Made by a program: the position numbers and the translations under genes. A stretch of DNA of 64,000 nucleotides. It comes from an uncultured delta proteobacterium. Its GTDB lineage: Bacteria > Desulfobacterota > Binatia > UBA9968. Below the pieces are notes generated by a model. The model was not told the origin of the DNA and did no database searches. It saw only the letters and a list, made by a program, of their open reading frames with translations. This document shows positions 26,174 through 38,915 of this stretch, piece after piece; position 1 is the first letter of the stretch; each line of letters begins with the position of its first letter. Where the stretch lies: assembly GCA_963728565.1 (NCBI GenBank), contig CAVSLC010000013.1:128001-192000 (forward strand). Direction: 5' to 3'.

Positions 26174-27652
26174 ATGGCACGTCCAGAAAGAGTTGGAACA
26201 ACCCAAAGCACGGTTTCCTATCATGGTTTGCGCGATTGGCTGGACCAGGTCGAAAAATTGGGCGAGCTGCAGAAAGTCAACGGCGCACACTGGGATCGGG
26301 AGATGGGGGCAATCACTCAGATGCTCACTGAAACGGGCAAAGGTAAGGCGCCAGCGATCCTTTTTGATGAAGTTCCCGGATACCCAAAAGGTTACCGGAC
26401 GCTGTACGGGCAGTTCTCAACCATTAAGCGGGTGGCGTTGACTTTGGGCCTACCGCTCGAATACGAGCACAAAGCCGATATCGTCAAAGCCTACCATCAT
26501 CGCATGGAGGACATGAAGCTGCTCAAGCCCAAGATCGTCAGGACCGGGCCGATATTTGACAATGTACTGGAAGGCGACAAAGTGGATGTGCTCAAGTTGC
26601 CCGTGCCGATTCATCATCAACAAGATACGCACCGCTACATTGGCACCGCGGATATGTGCATCACCAAGGATCCGGACGCAGAGTGGTATAATTTCGGCGC
26701 CTATCGTTGTGAAGTTTACGATGAAAAAACTATCGGCTGTCAGATCACCGAAGGTAAACACGGGCGCATTCACCGCGACAAGTATTTCGAGCGCGGGCAG
26801 AGCGCTAAGTTTGCGATTGTGTGCGGCCAAGATCCGCTTCTTTATTTGCTTTCCGCCAGTCCGTTGCCAAGCGGAGTTTCTGAATACGATTTCGCTGGCG
26901 GGATTCGCGGCGAGCCCGTCGAGGTCGTTAAAGGCCCATTTACCGGTTTTCCGATTCCGGCGGACGCAGAGATCGTCATCGAAGGGGAGGCGGTTCCGGG
27001 GCAGGTCAGACCAGAGGGGCCGTTCGGCGAATGGATGGGCTATTATTCCGACGATGTCGTGCCGCGTCCCTACTTGAATGTGAAAACCGTCCTGTATCGC
27101 AATAATCCGATTCTCACATGCGCGCCGCAGCACAAGCCGGTGGACGAAACCGGCTTGCTCAAAGGCATTGCCGGCGCGGCGGAAATCTGGAAAGCTTTGG
27201 AAGCTTGCGGGTTGCCCGAAATATTGGGCGTCTGGAATCACGAAGGGGCGCCGGCAACTCGCTTCACCGCCATTCAGATCCGGCAACGCTATCCGGGGCA
27301 TGCTCGCAACGTGCTTCACGTCGCAGCTAACTGTATGGCCGGCGCGTACAACGGCAAATGGACGGTGGTTGTCGATGACGATGTCGATTGTTCGGACATG
27401 GATCAGGTTCTATGGGCGATGGGCACTCGGTTCGACCCGATGACCGATATCGATTTGATTCAGAAAGCCTGGTCTTCGGGCCGCGATCCGATGTTTCTGC
27501 CGGGAAATTTCAACAATCGCATTTTGATCGACGCATGCGTTCCTTACAACCGCAAGCTGAAAGGGGAATTCCCGAAGGTGGTGGAAGTTCCTAATGACGT
27601 GCGCGCGCAGCTGAAGGCCAAGTTTCCGCAGTTATTCAAGTCACCAGGATAG
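26174..27652 (+). CDS. UbiD-family (prenylated-FMN-dependent) decarboxylase
   Basis: PAILFDEVPGY, NFGAYR, EIVIEG, EGPFGEWMGYY, VVDDDVD..VLWAM.TR; RBS AGGAGG. Confidence 0.92.
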   Translation: MARPERVGTTQSTVSYHGLRDWLDQVEKLGELQKVNGAHWDREMGAITQMLTETGKGKAPAILFDEVPGYPKGYRTLYGQFSTIKRVALTLGLPLEYEHKADIVKAYHHRMEDMKLLKPKIVRTGPIFDNVLEGDKVDVLKLPVPIHHQQDTHRYIGTADMCITKDPDAEWYNFGAYRCEVYDEKTIGCQITEGKHGRIHRDKYFERGQSAKFAIVCGQDPLLYLLSASPLPSGVSEYDFAGGIRGEPVEVVKGPFTGFPIPADAEIVIEGEAVPGQVRPEGPFGEWMGYYSDDVVPRPYLNVKTVLYRNNPILTCAPQHKPVDETGLLKGIAGAAEIWKALEACGLPEILGVWNHEGAPATRFTAIQIRQRYPGHARNVLHVAANCMAGAYNGKWTVVVDDDVDCSDMDQVLWAMGTRFDPMTDIDLIQKAWSSGRDPMFLPGNFNNRILIDACVPYNRKLKGEFPKVVEVPNDVRAQLKAKFPQLFKSPG

Positions 27653-31460: not shown

Positions 31461-32626
31461 CGGCATTACCATCCTTTGGTATCTAACTATCACACGAGCA
31501 ACCGGCTAGGAATCTCTTCCATGACGATTGCAGGCTAAGTGGAAGAATATAGGTAAAACCCGAGGTAGCTATTTCAAAGACCTGGCGAATGTGCGGATTA
31601 TTCGAAGGCCAGAGGATGGACGGTCGAAGACATCAAGGAGCACGGCATCTTTGAGTCAATCGGAAAGAGAAAATATCTCGTTAACGTTGGACACGGTTTT
31701 TGTGCAGAGCGAGAGCGCTCCATTTTTCTTAGACCCCGGCGCCATAAGCAATCGAGCGAAAGCGCACGTCGTGCGGGAGTGGTGAAGTAGCTTAGAAGAC
31801 AAGCCACAGCAGCAGTGTCGACGTTATTCCGACAATGCTCGCAATCATTATGAGTGAGTCTTCTACCATGTTGTACCTCGATGTTGATTGAACGGTGTGA
31901 GTGAAAAATGTCGAGCAATGAGGCCATGTCTCAGGAAGATGACCAACATGGCAAGGACCACTAACACATCTAGACTGTAACTGGACCAGAAGCCTTGTAA
32001 CTTACGCATAGCACCAAATTCTTACCGCAATAATGAGACCGGACCAAATTGTTTCGATACTTCCTTTGAAGTGCATTTGTGAGCATCTTTGACGACGGCT
32101 ATCATCAGGCAATTTTGGACGTGACACACCAACCGATAGACAAACCGCCCGCTGGATTCATGGAAGTCTTTAGCCCGGCGATGACACCACCGGCAAGAAG
32201 ACTTGAGCATCAGCGAGGGCAGAACAACGAAACACAGCAGCGTTACGCATCATTCACTTGAAACCGCAAATCGCCGTCATCCTGCCCCGATCAAAACGCG
32301 GCACGCCAAAGAAGACTGGCCGTTGTTTGTGAATAATCTCGGCGAGAGGATCGAGCAAATCAGTTTCGAAAGAAACAATGGCACCGAGCCCTGACCGGTC
32401 TGAAGATACGCCCATGGGACTGCTACTCAACCAAAGACCGTCATCTCGCTCGATATTACTGCCCGTGAGAACACTACAAAGCTGGCGCAAGAAGCTGACA
32501 GCTCAAGGAGCACTCTAGAGCGCTTACGCCACATTTCTCGATCAAGAGATCCAGGAAAAAAGTGCAAGGGGAAGTGCGACAGATCAGCCGAAAAACACAA
32601 AGCGGTAATGGTCCAGAGACGTGTCA

Positions 32627-32704
<78 letters not shown>

Positions 32705-32708
32705 GTAC

Positions 32709-32784
32709 TGGTGAGCCGTGCTGGATTCGAACCAGCGACCCTCTGCTTAAAAGGCAGATGCTCTACCGCCTGAGCTAACGGCTC
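32709..32784 (-). tRNA. tRNA-Lys (TTT)
   Basis: Reverse complement GAGCCGTTAGCTCAG...TCTGC CTTTTAA GCAGA...GGTTCGAATCC...ACGGCTCACCA. Confidence 0.97.
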
Positions 32785-32805
32785 GCTGGCGGGCAAACTC
32801 GTTAC

Positions 32806-32834
32806 TTCATAGCGATATTACCTCACTAAGTCAA
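32806..32834 (-). promoter_or_regulatory. Putative sigma70 promoter of the tRNA-Lys/tRNA-Glu pair
   Basis: TTGACT-N17-TATGAA on the minus strand, about 20 nt upstream of tRNA-Lys. Confidence 0.55.
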
Positions 32835-32924
32835 TGAACTCTGAGGAAGCGAACAACTTTTGCGGATTCGAAAAGAGAAGAAGTCGAAGATTGCCCGCCG
32901 CAGGCACAACGAAACCGATCTGCT

Positions 32925-33212
32925 CTAGCGCGGTGCTTGTTCCGTAGTAGCCGGTGTGCTTTTAGCAGCAGAGGACGGCGGAACAAACGAGTCGTTGACA
33001 CGAACAAATCCATGAGCTTCAAGTTGTCTTGCGCAGCTTTCTACGATGCCCGCGAGCATCTGAGTATCTTTAGCAACTGATTCACGAGCGACGCACTTAC
33101 GCATGGTGTTTGTCTTAGGATGATAGAGGCTGATCGATAGTGGATTAGTTGCCCCACATCCGGAAAGAGATTCGATGCTGATCAGAAGCCCAACGATTGA
33201 TATTGTTCGCAT
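32925..33212 (-). CDS. Small putative lipoprotein
   Basis: MRTISIVGLLI...LSGC lipobox and two further Cys; the longer ORF in the track overlaps tRNA-Arg, so it was trimmed. Confidence 0.6.
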   Translation of the reverse strand: MRTISIVGLLISIESLSGCGATNPLSISLYHPKTNTMRKCVARESVAKDTQMLAGIVESCARQLEAHGFVRVNDSFVPPSSAAKSTPATTEQAPR

Positions 33213-33269
33213 AAGCTGGTTGAAAATGATAACAGAACGGAAGGCAAATAGGTAAAAATACTCCGTTAC

Positions 33270-33343
33270 GCCCCCGTAGCTCAGTAGGATAGAGCACAGG
33301 ATTCCTAATCCTGGGGCCGTGAGTTCGAATCTCGCCGGGGGCA
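33270..33343 (+). tRNA. tRNA-Arg (CCT), CCA not encoded
   Basis: GCCCCCGTAGCTCAGTAGGATAGAGCA CAGGA TTCCTAA TCCTG...GTTCGAATC...CGGGGGCA. Confidence 0.95.
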
Positions 33344-34122
33344 TTCCAATCAATTAATAGCACCCGAACTCATCCAACTTCTCTTTCAAAGTCGCCGGAG
33401 TTGGCACGCCGCTTACTTCTTCTGTTGTTGTTCGCCACAGTGAATTATTATGATCTTACGCGCGCGTTAAGCCAGCTTGAGTGAGACGGAAAACTTTCTG
33501 CCTAACCGTAGCCCGAGCCGAACCAAGATCCAGGACAGCCGCCCGCAGCGGAACGAACCGGAGGTTCGTTCCTCGAGCCGCTCAAAACTCGATCAGGTTA
33601 GTACATTCCGACGTCTACGTAGCTTCATTTCAGATTCGCGTAACTGGAAGATAGTTTGCCCGCCAGCAACCTATCTATTCTCCCGTAAGAGAGATGGCAG
33701 GAGACTCACGTTCGCTCGATGTGATAAATTCTAGCCCAGTGTCAGACCCATAGTGCTTACCTGTAGGAGATTTGAATGGTCAGTGTACTGGGCATGGACA
33801 CCTTCGGGGAACGTGATCGCCATACCTTTGTTCAGCATAATCCCGGCGCAGCACGCTGTGGGAACATTTGTCCGCCCGCAAGCCTCAGATTTTGAATTCT
33901 TAGGCCTCTGTCGGCATCCACTGACAGTGAGTTGGTAAGCTAAATTAACACAAGCTTAAATACGCCAAGAGATTTGCTGATTAGCCTCGTAACTGCTAAG
34001 TAAAAACAAATAGGCGATAAACTAAAAGAATAGATGGTGGGATTTTTCATCCTCGGGAGGCAAGTTTCAATCTCGCTGAGGCTTACTGCGAAATTCGAAC
34101 TGATTGACGGGAGAATAGGCTA

Positions 34123-34881
34123 ATGACAGTTTCTAGCGCAGAGTTCGTCAAAGAAATTCAGCAGATGGTGCGTAAAAAACATTCAAAGGATCACCCCATC
34201 ATCGGCATGATCGAGGAAGGCAAATTAGATCACGAGCAGCTCAAAGGGTTTGTTGGTCAGTTCTATTTGTTTTTTCCAAAGCCTTTTCCCAAGCCTATAG
34301 CCGCAATGCTCAGCCGCTGTCCAGACGACCCGGAACTCGAAAAAATGTGGATCGAAAACGTTGTCGAAGAAGGGACGGGGGAGATCACCGGTACGGACAG
34401 TCACAAGGGCCTCTTCATTCAATTTGCCCAATCGTGCGGCTTTACCAAAGAAGAGTTAGACAAGGTAGAGCCGCTCCCGGAAAGCCAAGCCTTCCTAGAT
34501 TGGCGCGAGCTTTTGATGTATCAGCGCAGCTGGCTCGAGTTGTATGCGTGCCAGGGGTTTTGCCTCGAAGGTACGGCAAACGAGCGTATGACAAAGATTG
34601 TCAATGGGCTTACCAAGCATTATGGATTCAAGCGGGATTCTGAAAGTATTCGGTACTGGACCCTCCATATGGGTGTTGATGAAGAACATATGAAAGTCGG
34701 GCCATTGGCTGTGGAGAGATACGCGATTACTGAACCTCAGCAGGCCCAAGTGCGGAGCTCAGTGCAAAAGACCCTGGATCAATTCTGGCTTGCTTTTGAT
34801 GGAATCAAACGAGCGTTCGTCGATAAAGATGACATTTACGCCAAGTGGAGAAATTCAGACAGCAAATCAACTTCAAAATAG
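34123..34881 (+). CDS. Heme-oxygenase-like dimetal oxidase (PqqC/TenA/CADD superfamily)
   Basis: Metal-ligand pattern ENVVEEG...SH, LEG, YWTLHMGVDEEH. Confidence 0.85.
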   Translation: MTVSSAEFVKEIQQMVRKKHSKDHPIIGMIEEGKLDHEQLKGFVGQFYLFFPKPFPKPIAAMLSRCPDDPELEKMWIENVVEEGTGEITGTDSHKGLFIQFAQSCGFTKEELDKVEPLPESQAFLDWRELLMYQRSWLELYACQGFCLEGTANERMTKIVNGLTKHYGFKRDSESIRYWTLHMGVDEEHMKVGPLAVERYAITEPQQAQVRSSVQKTLDQFWLAFDGIKRAFVDKDDIYAKWRNSDSKSTSK

Positions 34882-34894
34882 AAGGGGATGATTC

Positions 34895-35548
34895 ATGGAG
34901 ATGGTTGATCTTTCGCGAATTATTTACGACGGTATGCCCAAAATCCCGGCTCTGCCGGACGTTCATGTGCAGAAGTTTTTTAGTCTCGAAAAGGGCCACC
35001 CTTTGAACGTGACGGAGCTGTCGTTGCCATGTCACGCCGGCACTCACGTCGATGCGCCCATTCACATAGTGCCAAACGGCAAGTCAATAGAAGAACTTCC
35101 GCTGGATTCATTTGTCGGCAACGGAGCCATCATCGCTGTACGAAAAAACGGCGGAGAAGAAGTGACAGCGGAGGATCTTCAGGCATCGGGGGTTGAGGTG
35201 AAGAAGGGCGATATCCTGATGCTCTATACCGGCTGGGACGAAAAGTTCGATAGTCCTGATTATAACCTTCATCCGTATTTGTCCGTAGATGCCGCCGAAT
35301 GGATGGTTGATAAGGGGATAAAGATGTTTGGTATCGACTGCATCACCGTCGATTTGCCGACGCCGCTTAGACCCAAGGGATTTGATTTCCCCGTGCACAA
35401 AACTCTTCTAAGCAACAACATTTTAATTGCAGAGAACGTGACAAATCTTGGACCTGTCGTTGGCAAGAGCTGCCGGATCCTGGCCTTTCCTCTCCGGATC
35501 AAAGGCAGCGATGCGGGACATGCTCGAATTGTCGCCGAACTCAATTGA
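34895..35548 (+). CDS. Cyclase-family metallohydrolase (kynurenine formamidase-like)
   Basis: HAGTHVDAPIH, GDILMLYTG, GID, VH..LL...ENV, GSDAGHARIVA. Confidence 0.9.
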   Translation: MEMVDLSRIIYDGMPKIPALPDVHVQKFFSLEKGHPLNVTELSLPCHAGTHVDAPIHIVPNGKSIEELPLDSFVGNGAIIAVRKNGGEEVTAEDLQASGVEVKKGDILMLYTGWDEKFDSPDYNLHPYLSVDAAEWMVDKGIKMFGIDCITVDLPTPLRPKGFDFPVHKTLLSNNILIAENVTNLGPVVGKSCRILAFPLRIKGSDAGHARIVAELN

Positions 35549-35564
35549 GCTTAGGTTGAAATAT

Positions 35565-36534
35565 ATGGCTTCAACGAAAACCATCAAAGGGTATTATCGG
35601 CGCTTGTTTAACGCCGTTCGACGATAGCGACCATATAGATTATCCGGCCTTAGAGAAGGAAATGGATTTTCTTCTTGCCGATTGTGACGCGGTAACAATT
35701 GCCGCTGTGGAAGCCGCCGAGTACACCATGCTCAGCCGCGAAGAGCGAAAAGAGCTTTTAAAAGTCGGCACGCAGATGGTCGACAAGCGCGTTCCGGTAA
35801 TCATTGGTTGTTCCAGTCCGTCGCCTCGCGAAGTAATTGACCTGGCCGAGTACGCAGCCACGATTGGCGGAGACTTTGTCCAAGTGCTGATGCCGCTCCG
35901 CCCATGGGGAGGTCAACCGACCATAGCGGAGTTGATGGAATTTTATACACAAGTCGCGTCGGCAAGTCCCTTGCCGGTGGTTTGTTATCATAATCCTGGG
36001 CCGGGCGCCGATCCGCCACAGGATGCTTTCGTCAAGATAAGCGAAATTGACAACATCCGATATTTCAAGGAAAGCTCAAGAGATATCACGAAGATCTCCA
36101 GGTTAATTGAACAGATCGAACTTGCCGGGCGGGGTCATTACTTCACCACCATGCAGCCACTGCTAGTCACTTTGATGCTCGGCGGCTCCGGCGCCACTAT
36201 GCCTCCGCCCGGAACCCGCATCGGGGCGCAAATTGTGAAAGCATTTCGAGCAAACGATCTTGAAAGCGCCCGGTTTTGGGCGCGCTGCTACGCATTATTT
36301 CCCGGAAAATGGGCCGCTTACGGTTTGCCGCCGGTAATGAAATCTGCGATGAAACACTTCGGCGTGGATATCGGCAATCCTTCGCGGCCCTATGCCCCCG
36401 TAAGCCCCCGCGATCATGCTCAAATCGGCCAGTTTCTCCGCCAGGTTGGGTTAATTGGTGAAGCCCCACCTAATCCGAAAGCTTTGATAGACGCCGCTAA
36501 TTTCCTTGCTCAGGAAGATACCTTTCTCCGTTAG
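35565..36534 (+). CDS. DapA/NanA-family aldolase/lyase; apparent 1-nt insertion near 35590
   Basis: MASTKTIK, then GIIGACLTPFDD..IDY in the shifted frame that joins ORF 35662; CYHNP and Schiff-base Lys in YFKESS. Confidence 0.85.
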
Positions 36535-36603
36535 CTTGACGATGGATACTCGCTAGGAGCAATCGTCTCGCAAATATTCGCGCATAATCTTATTGGAGCT
36601 GTG

Positions 36604-36792
36604 ATGGAATGGATTAAAGATCTTTCCGATAAACTGGTTATTTGGTTTCTCCGCAAAACTTCCTCGTTCGGCAAAGAGCTTACCGGCGCAGGTCGAGCAG
36701 AGCAGCTCCTGTGGCGAGAGCAGCGCTTGCGGAATCTAAAGGGTCTCGCAATGAGCTACCAGCAACGCCACGGTAAAAAAACTTCAGAATAG
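36604..36792 (+). CDS. Small basic hypothetical protein (62 aa)
   Basis: GGAG RBS, fills the gap in a collinear cluster, stops 12 nt before the SQR-like gene. Confidence 0.55.
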   Translation: MEWIKDLSDKLVIWFLRKTSSFGKELTGAGRAEQLLWREQRLRNLKGLAMSYQQRHGKKTSE

Positions 36793-36804
36793 GTTTCCGA
36801 TCTA

Positions 36805-37962
36805 ATGCGTCGATTCAATGGGCGAAAACAAATTGTGATATTGGGCGGCGGGTGTGGCGGCGTGGTTGCCGCGAGTCAGCTGGGCAGGAAATTGGGCGCC
36901 GACCACGATGTTATTCTCATCGACCGCCGCGCGGATCACGTCTTTATGCCCGCGTTTCTATTCCTGATGACCGGTGACCGACAGCCGCGAGAGATTTGTC
37001 GCAGCCTGAGTGCGCTGAAGAAGCGCAACGTTAAAGTGATTCAATCCGAAATTCTCGACATCGATCCTATGGCTCAAGAGGTCAGCCTTGCCAAAGAAAA
37101 GATCAGTTATGACTATCTCATTGTTTCTTTAGGCTTGCAGACGAGACCGGACTTGGTAAGCGGCTTTAATGAAGCCTCGCTTCATCCTTGGGAGATGGAA
37201 TCGGCTCTCAGGTTGCGGCATGCACTGTCTGAGTTTCGCGGTGGAAGGGTTGTCGTCGGCGTGCCTTTGGGACCCTACCGCTGCCCGCCAGCGCCCTATG
37301 AGGCACAGTGGATGTTGGACGGCTTTTTTAGGCAGCGCGGTATTCGTGATCGTGTACAGATAGACTACTTTACCCGGGATCCTGAACCGACCGGCGAAGC
37401 CCACGATCCGATAGTTTGGATGGACGCCGAGAGCAGAAGGCGCAAAATTGATATCCACTACGAATTTGTCGTGCGCTCTATCGATCCGGTCAAAAAACAA
37501 ATTGATGGACTCTATAACTATAGTTTGCCCTACGATCTTCTGGTGATGGTTCCGCCGCATCGTCCAGCGCAAGTTCTCCTCGACTGTGGATTGGCAGAGG
37601 CTGAAACCGGCATACGAGTAGACTATGACACGCTGCAAACGAAATGGAAAAACGTCTTCGCGATCGGCGATTGTGCCGATATGCCGGCTTCTAAAGCGGG
37701 AGGTGTTGCCCACCAAGAAGCTGACGTTCTGGCTAACAATTTAGCTGTAGAAATCACTGGAAAGGGAAGACCGGTAGATCTTTGGCTGCATACAATATGA
37801 CTACTTGCTTTCGGCGCTGGACGCGCCGCTGCTAATAGAACAACTTACCCCACCGGATGGCCGCCTTACGGAGTCACCGATCCCCGGACATGGGGACCCA
37901 ATCGACTGATCTATTGGGCTAAGATTGGCTTTGAAAAATGGTGGTTGTGGCGGTATTTCTAG
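36805..37962 (+). CDS. Sulfide:quinone oxidoreductase-like FAD oxidoreductase, probable selenoprotein (385 aa, Sec332)
   Basis: GGGCGG FAD motif, YDYLIVSLG, YRCPPAPYE (Cys160), FAIGD, KAG. The in-frame TGA at 37798 is followed by LLAFGAG...YWAKIGFEKWWLWRYF-TAG. Confidence 0.85.
37812..37828 (+). promoter_or_regulatory. Candidate bacterial SECIS element
   Basis: CGGCGC-TGGAC-GCGCCG: 6-bp all-GC stem starting 11 nt after the TGA; the loop starts 17 nt after it, with G at loop position 2. Confidence 0.7.
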
Positions 37963-38127
37963 AGCCTAGACTTTAATTCAGAGTAAGCTTTATCGAGGCG
38001 GAGCAAATCATCTCATCCAACTTACTTCTTTGGCGTAACTTGAGGCATTCGATTGCCGGGGCCGATTCATGGTTGGATTAGAGTAGCAGGGGTAGGGGCG
38101 CAGCAAATAAGTGGAGGCGTATACAAA

Positions 38128-38155
38128 AGTTTACATAATATATCTTATCAGACGT
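38128..38155 (-). other. dif: dif site (XerC/XerD chromosome dimer resolution)
   Basis: Minus strand reads ACGTCTGATAA GATATA TTATGTAAACT (11-6-11), compared with E. coli GGTGCGCATAA TGTATA TTATGTTAAAT. It is intergenic between convergent genes. Confidence 0.9.
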
Positions 38156-38219
38156 TAGATTATGAGGAAGGCTAGATCAAGGAGTTGACGAACTGTAGTC
38201 ACTACTCGATGGATCGTCA

Positions 38220-38915
38220 CTATTTAACGGCTGACTCCGGCTCAGCCTTGGCTTGCAGTTCAGCAACTTGCAGCATGAGACGCGCGGCAATCGGTGAGTT
38301 AGGGTTTTCTTTGATGTACTGCTGATATGCAACAATCGCCGATTTGTTGTCACCGACGACCGTATAACACCGTGCCTTTCCGAGCACGGCGGATTCCTTC
38401 AGCGCTCCGGTAATTCGTTCCGCTTCGGTATAGTGCTGAATTGCGCCGGCGCATTGGTTTTTCACTTCTTGTATGTGCCCAAGCGTCATCAAACCTATCT
38501 GTCGATAAACGGAGTTCTGATCTGTGGAAGCGATGAAGCGCTGGGCCGCCGCGGCCGCTTTGTCCAGATCGTTTGTAGCTAGATGACTGTTGGCCTCGTA
38601 GAGATGCGCCAGAGCGGCATAATGAGACCAGCGATACTCTTCGACTTTTTCAAATTCCGGAATCGCTTCGTTGTGCTTATTGGCGCGAAAAAGCGCGATC
38701 GCCCTTTCGAAGTGCTGGGCTGCTTCCTGGTTTTGGCGGCTCTTATAAACCTGCCAAAGCGAAATCCCGATGATCACAGCCATGATCAAAGCACCAGCCA
38801 GAATAAAAAGTCGACGCTTTTGTTGAACGAAACTCAAGGCCTGCTGAGTGAATAGCACGAAGTTGTCGGGTTGCCGGAGTTCCTTACGTGACAAGTGCTT
38901 AGCGCTGGTCGCCAT
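38220..38915 (-). CDS. Membrane-anchored TPR protein (YfgM-like)
   Basis: RKELRQPD.F N-terminus, one TM helix, TPR helices. Confidence 0.8.
   Translation of the reverse strand: MATSAKHLSRKELRQPDNFVLFTQQALSFVQQKRRLFILAGALIMAVIIGISLWQVYKSRQNQEAAQHFERAIALFRANKHNEAIPEFEKVEEYRWSHYAALAHLYEANSHLATNDLDKAAAAAQRFIASTDQNSVYRQIGLMTLGHIQEVKNQCAGAIQHYTEAERITGALKESAVLGKARCYTVVGDNKSAIVAYQQYIKENPNSPIAARLMLQVAELQAKAEPESAVK

Follow-up and report, generated by a model that had tools for sequence, protein, structure and literature searches.

Why should an enzyme that resembles a sulfide:quinone oxidoreductase (SQR) carry selenocysteine (Sec), and what pathway might the genes beside it serve? The question is raised by a cluster of five genes at positions 34123 to 37962 of a stretch of 64,000 nucleotides (nt), here called the window, which corresponds to positions 128,001 to 192,000 of contig CAVSLC010000013.1 (forward strand; NCBI GenBank assembly GCA_963728565.1) of an uncultured delta proteobacterium of the class Binatia. 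The source assembly is a metagenome-assembled genome (MAG) of 4.53 Mb, with 80.6% completeness and 5.8% contamination. The cluster was first noticed in a preliminary description made from the letters of the window, in which an undescribed pathway was proposed. As shown below, these genes form an undescribed conserved operon; a literature search of partial coverage returned no publication on it, nor on Binatia with selenocysteine. The features that carry the argument are the following, with coordinates in the window throughout (aa, amino acids).

34123..34881, plus strand: heme-oxygenase-like dimetal oxidase (HDO), CADD-like, 252 aa (Pfam PF14518)
34895..35548, plus strand: cyclase-family metal amidohydrolase, kynurenine-formamidase-like, 217 aa (Pfam PF04199)
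35565..36534, plus strand: Schiff-base enzyme of the dihydrodipicolinate synthase (DHDPS)/N-acetylneuraminate lyase (NAL) superfamily, DapA-like, broken by an extra T at 35592 (Pfam PF00701)
36604..36792, plus strand: conserved helical protein of 62 aa and no known family, from its open reading frame (ORF; ATG at 36604, with a GTG at 36601 possible)
36805..37962, plus strand: SQR-like flavin adenine dinucleotide (FAD) flavoprotein, 385 aa, selenoprotein with Cys160 and Sec332 (NCBIfam NF049943)
37798..37800, plus strand: UGA selenocysteine codon, codon 332, a conserved TGA within the HTIU motif (residues 329-332)
37812..37828, plus strand: hairpin of the selenocysteine insertion sequence (SECIS) type, with a CGGCGC stem, a UGGAC loop and a GCGCCG stem in the minimum free energy fold, starting 11 nt past the UGA

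Conservation and Inheritance of the Operon

The genes lie in the order HDO, cyclase, DapA-like, small ORF and SQR-like, all on the plus strand and separated by 13, 16, 69 and 12 nt according to the ORF listing and the sequence. The five collinear genes and the gaps of the preliminary description were reproduced exactly, save that the frame of the DapA-like gene needs correction, and its four enzyme family assignments hold at the superfamily level in Pfam, NCBIfam and PDB matches. Relatives were collected by scans with the HDO and the SQR-like protein (the best 80 of 96 and the best 80 of 106 relatives, respectively), giving 153 loci, numbered with an L below, that represent 107 distinct regions. 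All five genes are colinear on one strand in 73 of these regions, within a span of 2.9-4.1 kb, and the homologs are thus co-located in other genomes, as expected of the conserved unit that had been proposed. Contig ends account for 25 of the 34 incomplete regions; six others belong to Acidobacteriota and three are true Binatia exceptions, namely L080, which lacks the cyclase, and L150 and L157, which lack the HDO and retain a cyclase fragment only.

The pairwise protein distances of the four enzymes are correlated (Mantel r 0.77-0.86, p 0.001, 64 distinct complete clusters). This result speaks of co-inheritance and not of interaction, since relatedness alone would give the same. Mean protein p-distance is 0.17-0.25 across three families, and an even sample of 201 genomes of the class places the HDO and the DapA-like gene each in 11 of 13 genomes of the source organism's family (f1), in 10 of 11 of a second family (f2) and in both of a third (f3), all of one Binatia order, and in none of the 174 genomes from the other 17 families of the class. 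As selB is found class-wide (151 of the 201 genomes), this family restriction is not explained by the availability of selenocysteine. The earlier idea of a pathway unit is upheld as far as it concerns conserved and co-inherited genes, but the division between the first three and the last two genes that it considered does not match the conserved core described below.

The SQR-Like Protein as a Selenoprotein

Over nearly its whole length the SQR-like protein has its best family match in NF049943, the selenoprotein subtype of type III SQR, at 250 bits (E 3.8e-74) and thus below the cut-off of 525, with residues 8-374 aligned on model positions 1-378 of 406. The likeness extends to the HxxU motif, present here as HTIU with Sec replacing the C-terminal redox Cys, and to the Sec machinery of the genome. 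The differences are a score under half of the cut-off, the lack of any Cys form at Sec332 among 92 distinct relatives, the presence of a dedicated 62-aa partner and of a DHDPS-like gene that is always ahead, and the taxa concerned, which are Binatia and Acidobacteriota. Human SQOR is matched in the PDB with E 2e-33, and both of its redox Cys columns ('VKCAGAP' and 'YTSCP') align to Cys160 and Sec332, which are invariant in the SQR-like relatives. With human SQOR, bacterial SQR and flavocytochrome c sulfide dehydrogenase (6oi5, 3hyv and 1fcd) the protein shares the FAD fold, the redox-Cys columns and a hydrophobic aromatic tail, whereas identity is about 25-30% and the SQR-like protein has Sec for the second Cys. 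An FAD motif, GGGCGG, is present, and the conserved aromatic-rich C-terminus (IYWAK..FEKWWLWRYF) may form a membrane tail.

The assignment of selenocysteine is carried by the comparison of relatives. TGA stands at the aligned codon in all 134 locus rows (L147 included) and in 92 of 92 distinct relatives, and the 53 residues past it are largely invariant and among the most conserved of the whole protein. The fold energy of the SECIS stretch, taken alone, is not significant (z -0.38), and the case for a SECIS element therefore rests on comparative codon data. Among the distinct relatives the stem codons are frozen, with Gly as GGC in 90 of 92, Arg as CGC in 90 of 92 and Ala as GCC in 88 of 93, while synonyms vary freely in the Ala and Gly codons of the loop, in the Ala just past the stem and in a downstream Arg codon; each change within the stem preserves G-U pairing, and the loop follows the pattern NGGNC. 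The spacing of the hairpin presumably fits the rule of bacterial SECIS (bSECIS) models. The machinery for Sec insertion was found in the same genome, with matches to selB (395.7 bits), selA (607.5 bits) and selD (382.3 bits) and a tRNA-Sec on contig C25. The three sel genes form a selA-selB-selD operon on contig C28 (34981-39495), in which the selD match has one in-frame TGA, and SelD is probably itself a selenoprotein in the source genome. The reading of the SQR gene as Sec-encoding, already advanced in the preliminary description, is strongly supported by the kept TGA, the SECIS hairpin, the Sec machinery and the downstream frame. To judge from these comparisons, the SQR-like gene is a genuine selenoprotein gene of the type III SQR lineage, and its product very probably acts on sulfide or selenide at the membrane.

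According to the available parts of the published sources, the first report of type III SQR-like oxidoreductases with Sec dates from 2025 (PMC12013277), a 2026 review tabulates a Sec type III SQR with the motif HxxU (PMC13188914) and SQOR oxidises selenide (10.1101/2023.04.13.535674). In one Binatia genome the SQR-like gene (L051:6661-7815) has an extra in-frame TAG at codon 92, either as a pseudogene or through a sequencing error.

A different role for the flavoprotein is that of a quinone-linked dehydrogenase whose substrate would be an intermediate of the pathway (a cyclic amino acid or a thiol, for example), with the DHDPS-like enzyme processing the product. The hydroxyproline route, which employs a flavoprotein dehydrogenase, a DHDPS-family deaminase and an aldehyde dehydrogenase, offers a parallel, and the position of a DHDPS-family gene directly ahead of the flavoprotein in every relative, the aldehyde dehydrogenase found beside the core genes in three of six acidobacterial loci and a score of 250 bits, far under the SQR-subtype cut-off of 525, would all agree with it. 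Nevertheless, the two residues to which SQRs owe their sulfide chemistry, here Cys160 and Sec332, do not vary, the matches are by far the best with SQRs and flavocytochrome c sulfide dehydrogenases, and we know of no member of the SQR fold family that oxidises a carbon substrate. We consider such a dehydrogenase very unlikely.

The Small Protein, the Portable Core and Its Variable Partners

The small protein sits between the DapA-like and SQR genes in every complete cluster. It has no match in Pfam or NCBIfam, and in the ESM Atlas it matches 'hypothetical' clusters only, with a best score of 0.79. Fusion in frame to the SQR is seen in three acidobacterial loci (L135, L137 and L149) and in one of Binatia (L045), and in a database protein of 318 aa (P0001) it is combined with Pyr_redox_2 and FCSD_central domains; only two proteins came out of a search for longer forms that would represent fusions. 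Several Binatia homologs have an extra N-terminal hydrophobic helix. No Cys is conserved, and the protein is accordingly not a sulfur carrier. Because it is fused to the flavoprotein in other lineages, we regard the small protein as probably a subunit or partner of the flavoprotein, or its membrane anchor.

The six regions of Acidobacteriota contain the DapA-like gene, the small protein and the SQR only, without HDO or cyclase. Going by this comparison, the three genes are a portable core, and the partners beside it vary. In the source organism's family the core is accompanied by HDO and cyclase, and in 23 Binatia regions, a clade with about 68-70% SQR identity, an Amidohydro_2 gene closest to the dimetal oxygenases PtmU3, AibH and DitZ stands directly upstream of the HDO on the same strand. 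A different Amidohydro_2 gene, with LigW, gamma-resorcylate and ACMS decarboxylases as its closest matches, is oriented divergently to the DapA-like gene in all six acidobacterial loci; an aldehyde dehydrogenase lies beside the core in three of the six, and a UbiD-family decarboxylase abuts the SQR on its downstream side in three of eight loci from this phylum. One of the six (L137:8248-12048) has a 3-MST-like rhodanese and a 'SelD-related putative sulfur metabolism protein' (NF038049, 565 bits) just past the fused small protein-SQR gene, and TauE occurs in two of the six, in L137 upstream; these few acidobacterial neighbours are the only hints of sulfur outside the SQR-like enzyme. Taken together, the decarboxylases, the oxygenases and the amide hydrolase suggest the degradation of an aromatic or heteroaromatic acid. 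An HDO homolog of 51-54% identity also occurs in four Chloroflexota loci without the other four genes; it follows a UbiD decarboxylase in two of them and in one adjoins an NMT1/THI5-like protein. A UbiD homolog is also present within the window, at 26228-27637.

Transcription bears on how the core and the upstream pair are joined. Contigs from two metatranscriptome libraries, derived from relatives of 90-95% identity, cover most of the operon and bridge the HDO-cyclase, cyclase-DapA and small protein-SQR junctions, and one of them continues through the TGA as far as the true stop. As a hint of expression this is weak, since contigs are no proof of a single transcript and DNA may be present in RNA libraries.

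The modular distribution suggests an alternative, in which two independent units are neighbours: one (DapA-like, small protein and SQR) that detoxifies sulfide or serves respiration, and an unrelated HDO-cyclase pair, held together by synteny between tRNA-Arg and the terminus site dif. The core without HDO and cyclase in the six acidobacterial regions, the solitary HDO homolog of the four Chloroflexota loci and the loss of the cyclase from one Binatia genome and of the HDO from another are all in line with such independence, and the largest gap, between the DapA-like and the small gene, is unbridged by the listed RNA contigs. That gap does not lie between the two supposed units, however: with spacings of 13 and 16 nt the DapA-like gene is joined no less closely to the upstream pair than to the core, and the cyclase-DapA junction is spanned by RNA-library contigs. 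Identical order and strand in 73 regions and the correlated enzyme distances also oppose it, and on balance we find two separate units unlikely.

The HDO Oxidase and the Cyclase-Family Hydrolase

Membership of the HDO in PF14518, the fold family of CADD (Chlamydia CT610), BesC and PqqC, is clear (81.5 bits against a gathering score of 28.9). Its best PDB matches are CADD/4-aminobenzoate synthase (E 1e-15), and in the alignment to 1rcw all six metal-ligand columns of CADD (E, H, E, H, D, H) are kept within invariant stretches. CADD consumes two of its own residues, Tyr27 and Lys152; the present HDO differs in having Ile at both columns, and it scores 85.1 bits against TIGR04305 (CADD), for which the cut-off is 200. 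On the basis of cut-offs and key residues, a CADD-type para-aminobenzoate (pABA) synthase and a PqqC were both set aside. The subfamily is small and conserved, with 20 cluster representatives at E<=1e-30 among 1.84 billion and with 117 of 245 columns invariant among 64 relatives. Genome and metagenome collections yielded no locus for P0128 and P0133, two more distant relatives of the HDO. A weak match to TENA/THI-4 in Pfam recalls the salvage of thiamine pyrimidine, which pairs TenA with a deformylase. TenA is without a full metal site, whereas the HDO has one, and the parallel is a lead only.

The cyclase belongs to PF04199 (124 bits), and its PDB matches are metal-dependent hydrolases, among them KynB (E 5e-17) and isatin hydrolase (E 5e-6). 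With these two enzymes it shares the family and the conserved histidine-rich metal motif CHAGTHVDAPIH. It differs from KynB in its score against arylformamidase/kynurenine formamidase (TIGR03035, NCBIfam), which is 91.7 bits and below the equivalog cut-off of 223, and in having no tryptophan-pathway genes adjoining. A true KynB role was set aside on account of that score.

The DapA-Like Enzyme and the Extra T at 35592

The DapA-like protein matches the TIM-barrel family PF00701 with 98.6 bits. It shares with the DHDPS/NAL superfamily (DapA, YagE, HOGA and KdgD) the barrel, the active-site lysine of the Schiff base (YFKESS; K161) and the tyrosine Y133 (YHNP), in the numbering of E. coli DHDPS. 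It departs from DHDPS at three other catalytic columns, where Thr44 is replaced by Glu, Tyr107 by Gly and Arg138 is absent, and it lies below every equivalog cut-off, including that of dapA itself (TIGR00674, 88.5 bits against 206). A true DapA role was set aside on the cut-off and the missing key residues. The protein represents a separate, highly conserved subfamily, with 151 of 315 columns invariant, that is confined to the operon; its homologs carry automatic 'DapA' names only, from which no functional lead was obtained.

In the present assembly, a single extra T at 35592, which follows a GGG run, puts the body of the gene in another frame than its ATG at 35565. Translation from this ATG reaches a TAG (35625-35627) after 20 codons, and the body (35587-36534) lies in a frame that is open from 35560 and has its first ATG, GTG or TTG not before 35662. 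In each of the 91 distinct relatives the T is absent and a start codon (ATG or GTG) lies in frame 18-33 nt upstream; their proteins of 322 aa begin as M-x5-6-(K/S)GIIGACLTPF. The sequencing-run contigs that span the site, one from a DNA run and two from RNA runs, are all without the T; they come from relatives of roughly 90% identity, whereas the near-identical contigs of run X1 end before the site. In the search for runs, the best shared no more than 43% of words.

The lesion could be real, in which case the operon would be decaying in the source genome and the pathway non-functional there. The T is unique against 91 relatives and absent from the covering contigs, as such decay would have it. 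Weighing the other way, the remaining DapA-like protein is 100% identical to that of L008, no damage is seen in the four other genes, the T stands after a GGG run in a MAG with the completeness and contamination given above, and the run X1 contigs stop short of 35592, leaving the source strain unread there. Decay therefore appears highly doubtful, and the extra T most likely arose through an error in assembly or as a lesion of very recent date.

A Proposed Pathway

With moderate confidence, we hypothesize that the operon is vertically kept by one order of Candidatus Binatia and that it encodes an O2-dependent, membrane-quinone-linked breakdown or salvage of a small nitrogen-containing metabolite, probably one with sulfur or selenium, for which a derivative of an aromatic or heteroaromatic acid would be the likeliest class. 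An S- or Se-heterocycle, among the substrates first suggested, is a plausible candidate. The dimetal HDO would oxidise or cleave the substrate, a step to which one Binatia family would add the PtmU3/AibH-like oxygenase, and the KynB-like hydrolase would take off a formyl group or open an amide. The DHDPS-like enzyme could then form a lysine Schiff base with the resulting 2-oxo acid, leading to a retro-aldol or an elimination reaction, and the Cys/Sec flavoprotein with its anchor would oxidise the freed sulfide (or selenide) and pass the electrons to quinone.

Several points weigh against this proposal. No enzyme of the operon names a substrate, all four lie under the curated NCBIfam cut-offs of their nearest named families, and nothing sulfur-specific accompanies the SQR-like enzyme in the Binatia operon. 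No transporter or regulator was found conserved with the cluster. The aldolase chemistry of the DapA-like protein is only assumed, as Thr44, Tyr107 and Arg138 of true DHDPS are missing, and its gene is frameshifted in the present assembly. HDO and cyclase are dispensable for the core, since they are absent in Acidobacteria and since L080 is without cyclase and L150 without HDO; the Chloroflexota HDO homolog, as noted, does without the rest of the operon. None of the listed RNA contigs crosses from the DapA-like to the small gene, which are 69 nt apart in the window and 33-190 nt apart in relatives. Finally, some neighbour adjacencies may be due to chance, because Amidohydro_2 and UbiD paralogs are greatly expanded in the source genome, each with tens of tblastn alignments in at least about 20 separate places.

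The operon might instead be biosynthetic. In this case the Cys/Sec flavoprotein would use sulfide or selenide to form a persulfide or selenopersulfide bound to the enzyme. A carbon acceptor that the DHDPS-like enzyme had built would receive it, yielding a small molecule or cofactor with sulfur or selenium. Its conservation is unusually strong for a catabolic cluster (mean p-distance 0.17-0.25), its chromosomal position is fixed and it is found in nearly every genome of the order. The heavy investment in selenium, with a Sec machinery that includes a selD with TGA, and the SelD-related protein beside the core in one acidobacterial locus would also suit biosynthesis. A ligase, carrier protein, methyltransferase or exporter is not, however, conserved with the cluster, the variable partners (decarboxylases, aldehyde dehydrogenase and oxygenases) are typical of degradation, and the small protein is without a conserved Cys. 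A biosynthetic operon thus seems quite unlikely to us, and degradation or salvage is the reading with which we continue.

A more specific form of the degradative proposal is speculative and, in our opinion, has a rather small chance of being correct. The DapA-like enzyme, the 62-aa anchor and the obligate-Sec SQR could constitute a new membrane-bound lyase-oxidase couple, in which the Schiff-base enzyme would eliminate HS- or HSe- from the 2-oxo acid of an oxidatively opened S/Se heterocycle and the Cys-Sec flavoprotein would oxidise the anion on the spot, delivering electrons to the quinone pool. If true, this would represent a dedicated pathway of organosulfur or organoselenium mineralisation, possibly with a selenide:quinone oxidoreductase.

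To our knowledge, no Sec-containing SQR-type enzyme has a known physiological context. The operon gives one such SQR fixed partners, namely a fused or adjacent anchor and a private DHDPS-like enzyme, together with swappable oxygenase, hydrolase and decarboxylase modules, and the fixed partners make the question of why Sec is used in an SQR a testable one. The operon is also a sign of an oxidative pathway, as yet uncharacterised, in Binatia, a soil lineage that is abundant but uncultured; if the enzyme handles selenide, respiratory quinone reduction would be linked to the turnover of selenium in soil.

Chromosomal Setting and Flanking Genes

The cluster is bounded by the following features.

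33270..33343, plus strand: tRNA-Arg (CCT), upstream boundary (ARAGORN; Rfam tRNA, 70.4 bits)
33344..34122, no strand assigned: spacer of 779 nt with no recognisable gene or RNA family (Rfam and Pfam blank)
38128..38155, no strand assigned: dif-like Xer site of 28 nt, downstream boundary at the replication terminus (single copy, at the switch of GC skew)

The dif-like 28-mer begins 165 nt after the SQR stop, the same distance that had been given before. It has two inverted 11-nt arms and a 6-nt centre, as expected of dif, occurs once in the 4.53-Mb assembly and, we assume, matches the published dif consensus; Xer binding is predicted only. In bins of 4 kb, GC skew is positive for all ten bins up to position 40 kb and negative for five of the next six, with the change of sign at 36-40 kb, and in five of five complete relatives the operon lies at 47-55% of the chromosome from dnaA. 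Downstream of the SQR a dif-like motif lies at a distance of up to 500 nt in 43 of 86 regions; for limits of 2 kb and 4 kb the counts are 57 of 75 and 41 of 53. Its orientation is the same in 71 of 72 cases, and five of the 12 regions that lack it are from Acidobacteriota. Of the setting between tRNA-Arg and dif that the preliminary description reported, the dif side recurs in most relatives, but tRNA-Arg is found near the HDO (less than 200 nt upstream) in only nine of 72 related regions with at least 1 kb of upstream sequence. The setting is thus an old, conserved location and not a fresh island, with which the base composition agrees: the G+C content of the cluster matches that of its flanks and gives no indication of recent transfer. 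Such tight linkage between dif and a metabolic operon, maintained in three families, represents an unusual, and unusually stable, genome architecture. In L018 and L106, a 19-nt partial second copy of the dif-like site, with one arm and a portion of the centre, is found about 2,063 nt past the SQR, some 2 kb beyond the full site, and could be the trace of an Xer-dependent insertion.

The spacer of about 780 nt described earlier measures 779 nt, and its AT-richness proved to be mild only (G+C 0.45-0.51, against about 0.46-0.55 in the operon). It has no Rfam match, and its two ORFs match no Pfam family. Its 3' part of about 540 nt is common to the three closest relatives only (L008, L009 and L047, 84-91% identity), the distance from tRNA to HDO in other relatives being 32-77 nt, and the whole looks like a lineage-specific insertion. 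The length of the spacer differs even among the closest relatives, and this place therefore behaves like an insertion hot spot. L009 has an insertion of about 1.2 kb relative to window positions 33667-33725. A scan of 32500-38500 against Rfam (E<=1) found three tRNAs only, with no riboswitch or leader, and a consensus scan for promoters and terminators gave fewer sites than in shuffled sequences. Upstream of tRNA-Arg lie a tRNA-Glu/tRNA-Lys pair (32627-32784, minus strand) and a sulfatase-family gene (PF00884; 29853-31493, minus strand). Past dif, genes for a TPR_21 protein, a bifunctional-nuclease-domain protein, a MiaB-like radical-SAM enzyme and a CoxE-like VWA protein are all on the minus strand.

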